Shown: positions 29,825-30,241 of the stretch, in pieces
Layout: each line of letters starts with the position of its first letter
How positions within the stretch are numbered: the first letter of the stretch is position 1
NCBI GenBank assembly: GCA_947594985.1
Contig: CANQEK010000002.1
Span: 1-43,343, forward strand
Reading direction: 5' to 3'
Origin: an uncultured Clostridia bacterium
Lineage (GTDB): Bacteria; Bacillota; Clostridia; TANB77; CAG-508
DNA length: 43,343 nucleotides
Program-made: the position numbers and the translations under genes
The notes under the pieces: model-generated
The model's database searches: none
Told to the model about the DNA's origin: nothing
Seen by the model: only the letters and a program-made list of their open reading frames with translations

Positions 29825-29942
29825 GTAAGTTTTCCTTTCAAAGATTTTAAAATGTAACCACAAATAACCTCAAAAACAACTTTTCGCTATATTTTCGGCT
29901 ATTTTTCACTATTTTTAAAGCTATTTCTAGCTACTTTTCAAT

Positions 29943-30237
29943 CTACTTTTCGCTACTTCTAAATTTATTTCTAGCATTTTTCAATTAATATAGAACTTTT
30001 TTTCGCTACTTTTAACTATTTTTGTCTACTTTTCGCTACTTCTAACTACTTTTTAGTCCACTTTTCACTACTTATAAATTTATTTGTAATAATTTTAATT
30101 AATTTAAAGCTACTTTTCGCTACTTCTAAATTTATTTCTAGCAATTTTCAATTAATATAGAACTTTTTTTCGCTACTTTTAACTGTTTCTGTCTACTTTT
30201 CGCTACTTCTAACTACTTTTTAGTCCACTTTTCGCTA
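29943..30237. repeat. Two 128-bp direct repeats (29943-30070 and 30110-30237, 4 mismatches) built from a reiterated CTACTTTTCGCTA motif
   Basis: Direct alignment of the two copies. Eight exact TTTTCGCTA copies and several variants lie between 29881 and 30238. On the minus strand the motif reads TAGCGAAAAGTAG, and TAG stops block all frames. Confidence 0.9.
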
Positions 30238-30241
30238 TTAA

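Follow-up and report, generated by a model that had tools for sequence, protein, structure and literature searches.

A lineage-specific array of phased A-tract repeats between a SipW-type signal peptidase gene and a secreted-protein gene in an uncultured gut clostridium

The locus and its intercistronic gap

A 43,343-nucleotide stretch of DNA from an uncultured Clostridia bacterium (GenBank assembly GCA_947594985.1, contig CANQEK010000002.1, positions 1 to 43,343), hereafter called the window, includes a gap between two genes that is filled with short repeats. On one side of this gap is a gene for a SipW-type (archaeal-type) signal peptidase I, here called sipW, and on the other is a gene for a secreted protein of 226 amino acids (aa). 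The genes of the entire window are oriented on the minus strand, and its G+C content is ~24%. Read along the gene strand, the locus comprises genes for a 516-aa P-loop protein, a DUF2357 protein and the SipW-type peptidase, followed by the repeat-filled gap, the gene for the 226-aa secreted protein, a gene for a 554-aa protein, and two more genes for SipW-type peptidases. A preliminary description of this DNA, made from its letters alone, had recognized the gene upstream of the gap as SipW-type, and this assignment holds because its match to family TIGR02228 scores above the curated cut-off (Table 1).

The same description had given the gap a length of 378 base pairs (bp), beginning at 29864. 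All homologues of the 226-aa protein begin with MKSE..KLKIL, which identifies the conserved start codon as the ATG at 29824 instead of the TTG at 29863. Therefore, the true gap is 417 bp long (29825-30241). The proposal that this DNA is non-coding is borne out by its only open reading frames (ORFs), which are 20 and 32 aa long, and by the presence of 27 TAG triplets on the sense strand.

The gene downstream of the gap had been labelled TasA-like. There are no matches of the 226-aa protein to Pfam or NCBIfam families even at E-values up to 10, and there are none to sequences in PDB. An AlphaFold2 (AF2) model of the protein has a predicted local distance difference test score (pLDDT) of 63.5, and its Foldseek matches are generic beta-sandwiches with template-modelling (TM) scores of about 0.3. 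TasA is not among the 50 Foldseek matches listed for this model of moderate quality. The label thus lacks support from sequence families and from the fold search; it derives from the position of the gene beside that of a SipW-type peptidase, and the protein is not demonstrably a TasA-type fibre protein.

Architecture of the repeat array

The array begins 4 bases past the sipW stop codon and ends about 17 bases short of the downstream start codon. When its sense strand is cut before each TAG, the resulting units measure 10-12 bp or a simple multiple thereof. They have the general form TAG-NN-AAAA-G, and TAGCGAAAAG is the commonest version. There are about 30 of these units, each consisting of TAG and an A-tract. 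They are arranged in a hierarchy, wherein the 10-12-bp units make up modules of 53 bp and of 30/32 bp, and the modules make up a 167-bp tandem duplication. The sense strand of the array is poor in C (6%).

Two 128-bp direct repeats had been noted previously, and both their 167-bp period and their 4 mismatches were verified. These mismatches are located at 29977, 30018, 30022 and 30067, and one of the four lies inside a motif whereas three lie outside. The eight motif-like sites do start at 29943, 29996, 30026, 30058, 30110, 30163, 30193 and 30225, as had been reported, with spacings of 53, 30, 32, 52, 53, 30 and 32 bp. What needs amendment is the claim that a 13-mer recurs exactly at all eight. 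The 13-mer CTACTTTTCGCTA is exact at just four of them (29943, 30026, 30110 and 30193), and the remaining sites carry 1-2 mismatches. The element that is present eight times is the 9-mer core TAGCGAAAA (gene strand), and there are likewise eight occurrences of the core TAGCGAAA/AGCGAAAA (TTTTCGCTA on the plus strand). If up to 2 mismatches are allowed, there are 12 matches to the motif, 11 of which are in the array, compared with 1.14 expected in the whole window; none of 100 shuffled sequences reaches 12.

Table 1. Coordinates of the intercistronic gap, its flanking genes and the features within it
Feature	Position	Strand	Details
SipW-type (archaeal-type) signal peptidase I gene	30242..30829	-	TIGR02228, E-value 2e-21, 76.5 bits (curated cut-off 51.85)
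Whole intercistronic gap, 417 bp	29825..30241	-	orthologous gap 32, 2 and 28 bp in L001, L007 and L009
sipW-proximal 128-bp copy	30110..30237		53-bp module + 30-bp + 32-bp modules + start of next module
39-bp junction between copies	30071..30109		degenerate remainder of 52/53-bp module; Tandem Repeats Finder (TRF) periods 52-53 and 115 bp
Second 128-bp copy	29943..30070		4 mismatches to sipW-proximal copy
Gene-proximal degenerate 10-12-bp units	29880..29942		sense strand: TAGATTGAAAAG, TAGCTAGAAA, TAGCTTTAAAAA, TAGTGAAAAA, TAGCCGAAAATA, TAGCGAAAAG
RNA hairpin (predicted)	29842..29944	-	5' arm 29944-29909 (array units), 29-nt loop, 3' arm 29879-29842
Weak promoter-like hexamers between array and gene	29844..29879	-	TTGAGG-18-TAAAAT, 29873->29844, 9 of 12
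Shine-Dalgarno region GAAAGGAAAA	29830..29839	-	TTTGAAAGGAA conserved in L001 and L009
Secreted 226-aa protein gene	29144..29824	-	hydrophobic N-terminal signal ending ...STYAKYY; beta-rich model

Absence from relatives and probable origin

There are only five homologues of the 226-aa protein among 5.8 billion proteins, with identities of 53-56%. The contigs that carry homologues represent three lineages (L001-L006, L007/L008 and L009). All three keep the gene order 517 aa, DUF2357, SipW and homologue, and the gene that follows, which encodes 552-561 aa, is visible in L001-L004 and L007. The gap between the SipW-type gene and the homologue is just 2-32 bp in these lineages, compared with 417 bp in the window. 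Therefore, about 400 bp (29842-30241) are an insertion private to the lineage of the window. There is no array motif in the loci of the relatives, nor is there any comparably phased segment. Because the array is missing in all three related lineages, it is not a conserved control region of the operon. The sequence left over between the array and the start codon is CTTTGAAAGGAAAACTTAC, and it contains the TTTGAAAGGAA that is found in the short spacers of relatives. This conserved element marks the ancestral short spacer.

There is one additional source for the insertion. In an independent assembly from the European Nucleotide Archive (ENA; L131, a contig of 781 bp), sipW is identical and is followed by the initial 114 bp of the array without a single difference; the contig breaks where the repeat starts to recur. 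Thus, the insertion is not an assembly quirk of one contig. Exact look-ups of the window's own proteins returned no contig other than L131, and a scan of GTDB genomes with a protein pattern from the 226-aa protein gave no match. The source species has no representative among the GTDB species genomes.

We infer that the array arose locally by slippage or duplication. It may have grown in place through successive events of this kind, wherein 10-12-bp units would have given rise to the 30/32-bp and 53-bp modules, the modules would then have been duplicated as the 167-bp tandem repeat, and about 3.5 units would have been copied in inverted orientation at the gene-proximal end. Indeed, the whole insertion can be derived from one unit via direct duplications and one inverted duplication. 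A probable seed is the purine-rich 3' end of sipW, in which AGAAAAAGTAGAAAAGAAAG (about 30257-30276, the last codons) resembles the repeat unit of the array. Moreover, in 43 kb AAAAGTAG is present only seven times outside the array, and one of these copies is located at 30268 in the part of the sipW tail that adjoins the array. These similarities hint at the coding tail of sipW as the source of the array.

Two other gaps in the window hold tandem arrays. Between the DUF2357 gene and sipW, a gap of 167 bp (30830-30996) contains an array of four 26-bp repeats with a consensus of about ATTAATTTTTTTCTATTAATATTTAA (30872-30974), and the same junction measures 2 bp in L001. The 187-bp gap at 25575-25761 contains a second phased A-tract array (25610-25752), in which AAATAAAAAAC is repeated about 12 times with a period of 10.6-10.8 and a G+C content of 9%. 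This gap separates the third SipW-type gene from a gene for a 228-aa protein, and it measures 12 bp in L001. A weak promoter-like sequence, TTAAAA-17-AATAAT, is located after this second array (25629->25601). Both of these private arrays are absent from the corresponding gaps of L001.

Searches for the array elsewhere

There are no matches to an exact 20-mer of the array in 185,579 GTDB species genomes. A homologous array was not found in GTDB genomes, in IMG/VR or, among the matches listed, in JGI metagenomes, and blastn revealed no similarity of the array to plasmids and phages. The preliminary description had named a dispersed REP-like repeat as the outcome that would speak against it; within the 43-kb window and the public collections searched, the array is specific to this one locus. 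No Rfam family matches the window at the gathering threshold, and at E-values up to 1 there is just one spurious miRNA match in 29700-30400. No tRNA or tmRNA genes were found.

A gapped pattern of two boxes was also used with the JGI metagenomes, IMG/VR and GTDB. Among the matches listed, all are unrelated sequences and none comes from related Clostridia metagenome-assembled genomes (MAGs), and the best-scoring loci inspected are coding repeats rich in Lys and Ala. The two-box matches in four GTDB genomes from unrelated phyla (L218, L283, L306 and L323) are mostly of this kind (AAAAAAGTAGCGAAAAAAGCAGCT...), which shows that the motif is common in coding sequence for basic tails. A different arrangement is found on an unrelated AT-rich contig (L017, JGI Ga0233412_10095799, positions 965-1110), wherein a run of three copies of TTTTCGCTAC is present as a perfect inverted pair around an 88-bp spacer. 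This repeat adjoins a zinc-finger-like ORF, and it shares a 10-mer with the array and no further similarity.

Helical phasing and predicted curvature

There are 21 A-tracts of at least 4 bases on the sense strand of the array. Their centre-to-centre gaps are 9.5-12, 20-22.5 or 30.5-31 bp, which are near multiples of 10.5 bp. At a period of 10.5 bp, the mean resultant of the tracts reaches 0.876; the highest value in 5000 trials of random placement was 0.72. These values uphold the earlier claim that the motifs and A-tracts reside on one face of the helix. Among all 378-bp segments of the window, the array ranks highest for A-tract periodicity (R of 22.5 versus 13.5 for the 99th percentile). 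The unit length equals the helical repeat, and therefore all 21 A-tracts lie on one face. However, because strong phasing follows from a unit length of 10-12 bp, it provides no evidence of selection.

The array has the hallmark of intrinsically curved phased A-tract DNA, which is the recurrence of several A4-A7 tracts at the helical repeat. In a dinucleotide wedge model, the ratio of end-to-end distance to contour length is 0.31 for the array compared with 0.82 for shuffled sequences. The most curved 378-bp stretch of the whole window according to this model, with a ratio of 0.12, is 29721-30098, and it overlaps the array. From this geometry, strong and planar curvature of the array DNA is predicted over about 36 turns.

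Regulatory sequences

The preliminary description had pointed out a resemblance between the array motif and the box recognized by Spo0A. Tandem Spo0A 0A boxes have the consensus TGNCGAA and are organized as 7 bp with a spacing of 3 bp. The 7-mer of the array is similar in that it ends in CGAA, is directly repeated and has a period of about 10 bp. It is different in that every copy reads TAGCGAA, with an A where position 2 of the 0A box is G. There is no TGNCGAA in 29825-30241, and the four in the whole window compare with 3.3 expected. A SinR-type operator, which had also been suggested, fares no better, because the consensus GTTCTYT is absent from the array. The same is true for the CodY box AATTTTCWGAAAATT at up to 3 mismatches, and the counts of both the SinR and CodY sequences across the window equal the shuffle expectation. 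The absence of consensus sites from the array thus rules out arrays of Spo0A, SinR or CodY boxes.

There is no intrinsic terminator in the gap. Of the weak hexamer pairs reported by our promoter scan, the one listed in Table 1 is located nearest to the gene, and a further pair (TTGTTT-17-TACATT, 29879->29851) was noticed by eye and falls under the threshold of the scan. There is no remA gene in the 43-kb window, and no gene for a DNA-binding regulator is encoded there. Binding of the array RNA by TRAP or HutP was set aside, as spacers of 7-9 nucleotides (nt) between UAG triplets would be unsuited to either protein.

A strand-specific RNA hairpin

The sense-strand RNA is predicted to form a hairpin at the gene-proximal end of the array. 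Its stem comprises 34 pairs, 7 of which are G-U, and has no A-C mismatches, and it ends one base before the Shine-Dalgarno sequence. The 3' arm is a unique T/G-rich segment that can be read as an inverted, transition-diverged copy of about 3.5 units. The 136-nt segment 29815-29950 folds with -28.7 kcal/mol (z -3.6) on the sense strand versus -8.3 kcal/mol (z +0.46) on the antisense strand, and the 103-nt hairpin alone gives -27.2 versus -5.8 kcal/mol. The duplex between the two arms (-29.5 kcal/mol) surpasses all 8561 sense windows (best -25.4) and all antisense windows (best -20.2). This bias for G-U pairs may reflect selection for an RNA hairpin or, equally, C-to-T pressure on this C-poor strand.

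Comparison with known systems

The array belongs to known kinds of sequence, namely phased A-tract curved DNA and intergenic tandem repeats. Katayama et al. in 2013 reportedly found that the alpha subunit of RNA polymerase is bound by three A-tracts that precede the plc promoter of Clostridium perfringens. The two regions are similar in that both have A-tracts that recur with the helical period on a single face, both come from AT-rich clostridial genomes, and both closely precede a gene whose product is secreted. They are different in that the array comprises not three but 21 tracts, which extend over about 36 turns, is part of an operon and does not precede a defined promoter, is followed by no strong -35/-10 sequences, and is not conserved in relatives. 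The phased A-tracts of C. perfringens plc are a published analogue that appears in the reference list of PMC4132750 (as ref. 21).

Upstream of Peps and PtapA, the DNA protected by RemA comprises six or more AT-rich direct repeats of 7 bp with 3 bp between them (PMC8481266). Our comparison is based on the geometry of these footprints, since the literature consulted gave no sequence consensus for RemA, and the array corresponds to the pattern in form only, with about 30 units of 10-12 bp. Like the array, the RemA regions associated with Bacillus subtilis tapA-sipW-tasA consist of poorly conserved AT-rich direct repeats of 7+3 bp, with a period of about 10 bp, at an operon that contains sipW. Those regions are thought to wrap round an oligomeric ring, and by analogy the array might be wrapped as well. 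However, B. subtilis has ~6 repeats over 110-160 bp that are conserved and located upstream of a mapped promoter, whereas the units of the array lie between sipW and the next gene.

More distant resemblances were also considered. Pneumococcal BOX elements and the iteron or centromere arrays of plasmids (parC/ParR, tubC/TubR) consist of short direct repeats in blocks, have complementary ends that form hairpins, and are bent or wrapped. The array is likewise arranged in blocks with complementary ends that are able to form a hairpin. However, it is known in one copy, is chromosomal, and is accompanied by no genes for partition, replication or transposition. The bent DNA of kinetoplast minicircles and the satellite arrays made of A-tracts belong to eukaryotes, as organelle or satellite DNA. 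The array shares with them a long run of in-phase A-tracts that is predicted to close almost into a circle, but it is a bacterial intercistronic spacer.

Possible functions of the array

We consider the best explanation, at roughly even odds (a probability of about 0.5), to be that the array is a lineage-specific curved spacer that was born by slippage and has a possible architectural effect. By this reading, the array is not an ancient operator. It splits two cistrons that are tightly packed in relatives, and it would place a long, curved, A-tract-rich upstream region before weak promoter-like hexamers and a strong ribosome-binding site. The likeliest effect, if there is any, would be architectural, with the array serving as curved upstream activating DNA. 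Perhaps the A-tracts make contacts with the alpha subunit of RNA polymerase, as at C. perfringens plc, or perhaps the DNA is wrapped round an oligomeric activator, as with RemA. As an outcome, the abundant secreted protein might be expressed partly independently of the peptidase gene.

Several observations weigh against this explanation. Random chains of 10/11/12-bp units equal the observed phasing in 19.5% of trials, and permutations of the observed gaps do so in 35%, and these null simulations rule out phasing as a sign of selection. The parameters of the wedge model are only nominally those of Bolshoy et al. 1991. There is no strong promoter of the sigma-70 type after the array, where the best candidate scores 9 of 12, and promoter-like sites are not enriched (17 versus 15.5 expected). 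This lack is meaningful because the cluster does contain a canonical promoter elsewhere, which is a perfect 12/12 match (TTGACA-17-TATAAT, 24847->24819, minus strand) upstream of a gene for a 241-aa protein, in a gap whose length is conserved in L001. The unrelated AT-rich tandem arrays in neighbouring gaps fit a neutral, genome-wide tendency to slippage, and the sense-strand hairpin points to a role at the RNA level instead. Finally, there may be a low-copy dispersed family elsewhere in the source genome, as the finding of a single copy covers the 43-kb window and the public collections.

Among the competing explanations, a realistic one, although we place it clearly below even odds, is that the array is a neutral minisatellite. 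In this case it would be a functionless by-product of slippage in a genome with 24% G+C, read through in the sipW operon mRNA, and its curvature and phasing would be side effects of a unit of ~10.5 bp. Such an origin is consistent with the lack of the array in relatives, with the presence of other private tandem arrays in adjacent gaps, with the ability of random 10/11/12-bp chains to reproduce the phasing, and with the absence from the gap of any strong promoter, terminator, known operator or Rfam family. Furthermore, the four mismatches between copies show no clear bias away from the motif. It is less easily reconciled with 128-bp copies that have diverged by 3% and yet have not been lost by recombination, with a strand-specific hairpin of unusual quality that is placed right at the Shine-Dalgarno end, and with two private arrays that are each located directly between a SipW-type gene and the next gene of roughly 226-228 aa, which hints at a shared role. 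That hairpin is the core of another proposal, wherein the gap is co-transcribed with sipW, the 34-bp A-U/G-U stem is an RNase III-type processing site and/or a 5' stabilizer, and the long, purine-rich, single-stranded spacer makes each cistron independent of the other in its stability and translation. Its strand specificity (with 7 G-U pairs and no A-C mismatches), the complementarity of its arms, which is above that of every control window on both strands, and the lack of a terminator between the genes all argue for such a role. We nonetheless judge it improbable, as the hairpin is known from a single sequence, there is no Rfam match, relatives manage without the hairpin, and the C-to-T bias expected on a strand with 6% C could alone turn an inverted duplication into G-U pairs.

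Similarly doubtful is the cooperative binding of a sequence-specific regulator to TAGCGAAAAG boxes to control the downstream gene, for which a Spo0A-like protein, a response regulator of the OmpR/PhoB or LytTR type, or RemA could be candidates. The core TAGCGAAA/AGCGAAAA contains CG, is exactly repeated in its eight copies, and has no more than one or two further occurrences in 43 kb. The boxes repeat directly along a single face of the helix, and their 7+3-bp layout matches the footprint pattern of RemA upstream of the sipW-containing operon of B. subtilis (PMC8481266). However, recent duplication explains the exact copies; the array lacks TGNCGAA, GTTCTYT and CodY boxes; no other gene in the window is preceded by the motif, and the related loci lack it; relatives keep the operon without the array; and there is neither a regulator encoded in the window nor a clear promoter on which one could act. 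The preliminary description had read the layout as that of a cooperatively bound regulator. What survives is that the one-face arrangement is compatible with cooperative or wrap-around binding, whereas the absence of the array in relatives, the lack of a strong promoter and the explanation of phasing by unit length argue against the rest. Far less probable is the arrival of a dispersed modular intergenic repeat or miniature inverted-repeat transposable element (MITE) of the BOX/RUP/REP kind, or of a plasmid-type iteron or centromere array. The modular make-up of the array does recall boxA-boxB(n)-boxC elements, its proximal units are complementary to the T/G-rich end, and its 10-12-bp direct repeats in two blocks recall parC/tubC centromeres. 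Yet there is no second copy in 43 kb and no homologous copy in GTDB genomes, viral contigs, plasmids, phages or (among the matches listed) metagenomes, none of the repeats reported are terminal inverted repeats, and the array has a chromosomal context with no rep, par or transposase genes in the window. An assembly artefact, in which strain variants or a collapsed or expanded repeat were stitched in tandem, is barely credible. Although the organism is uncultured and contig L131 breaks inside the array, L131 also reproduces sipW and 114 bp of the array exactly, a unique 39-bp junction joins the copies, and the copies differ at four well-spaced positions, which makes their tandem order resolvable by short reads.

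We therefore rank an architectural role first, followed by no function, an intercistronic RNA hairpin, a sequence-specific regulator array and a dispersed element. The architectural, RNA-hairpin and regulator-array explanations can coexist, and jointly they are about as likely as pure neutrality. A bolder version of the architectural explanation, which we find rather unlikely, is that the array is a cis-acting module that emerged de novo. Slippage in the sipW tail would have produced a one-faced A-tract platform of 36 turns for wrapping by a RemA-like activator or RNA polymerase, and selection would have kept it. Together with the hairpin, this platform would uncouple an abundant secreted structural protein from its dedicated peptidase, and the array at 25610-25752, which follows another SipW-type gene, would be an independent instance.

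Other features of the locus

The host belongs to an uncultured lineage of gut Clostridia. Closest to it are 'Lapin' MAGs from rabbit gut and MAGs of 'Candidatus Scatovivens', whose RecG is ~85% identical. The window has a chromosomal context that includes genes for RecG, arginyl-tRNA synthetase, ABC transporters and the sporulation protein YtfJ. The last of these suggests a spore-forming lineage and nothing beyond that. RecG is divided between a 586-aa ORF (11243-13003) and an overlapping 112-aa ORF (10954-11292) with the RecG C-terminal domain, which suggests a frameshift or sequencing error in 10954-13003.

The genes for the 516-aa P-loop protein and the DUF2357 protein (30997-33831) are located directly upstream of sipW, and they are syntenic in L001 and L009 and, for the DUF2357 gene only, in L007. 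This pair is reminiscent of McrBC-like pairs of an NTPase and a nuclease. Three SipW-type peptidase genes (25762-26493, 26661-27167 and 30242-30829) are part of a conserved cluster that is mostly unannotated, and a fourth candidate peptidase, which is Peptidase_S24-like, is encoded at 35491-36015. This SipW-rich cluster looks like an uncharacterized locus for secretion or a surface structure.

The second SipW-type gene (26661-27306) is apparently split into a 71-aa ORF with a transmembrane segment (27091-27306) and a 168-aa ORF with the catalytic region. A similar 'gap' of 155 bp is found in L001. The split may be due to a mis-called start or a frameshift, or it may be a conserved peculiarity. 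In addition, there is a 46-aa ORF (28986-29126) that overlaps the start of the gene for the 554-aa protein. Its sequence is kept in the corresponding 160-bp 'gap' of L001. This ORF probably represents a small gene or an extension at the N terminus.

Implications

The array is real and physically striking. At the same time, it is a young feature confined to a single uncultured lineage, and none of the features tested links it to a known regulator. If it is neutral, then it illustrates the free expansion of intergenic spacers by slippage in a gut clostridial lineage with 24% G+C. It would also serve as a reminder that the helical phasing of a repeated motif is no proof of a protein-binding array when the unit itself is ~10.5 bp long. 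If the array is functional, then a new regulatory architecture, based on curved DNA, an intercistronic hairpin or both, would have arisen from mere local repeat amplification and would have split a tightly coupled operon. In that case, it would also offer an unusually long bacterial block of phased A-tracts for studying how DNA is wrapped by RemA-like rings or by the alpha subunit of RNA polymerase.

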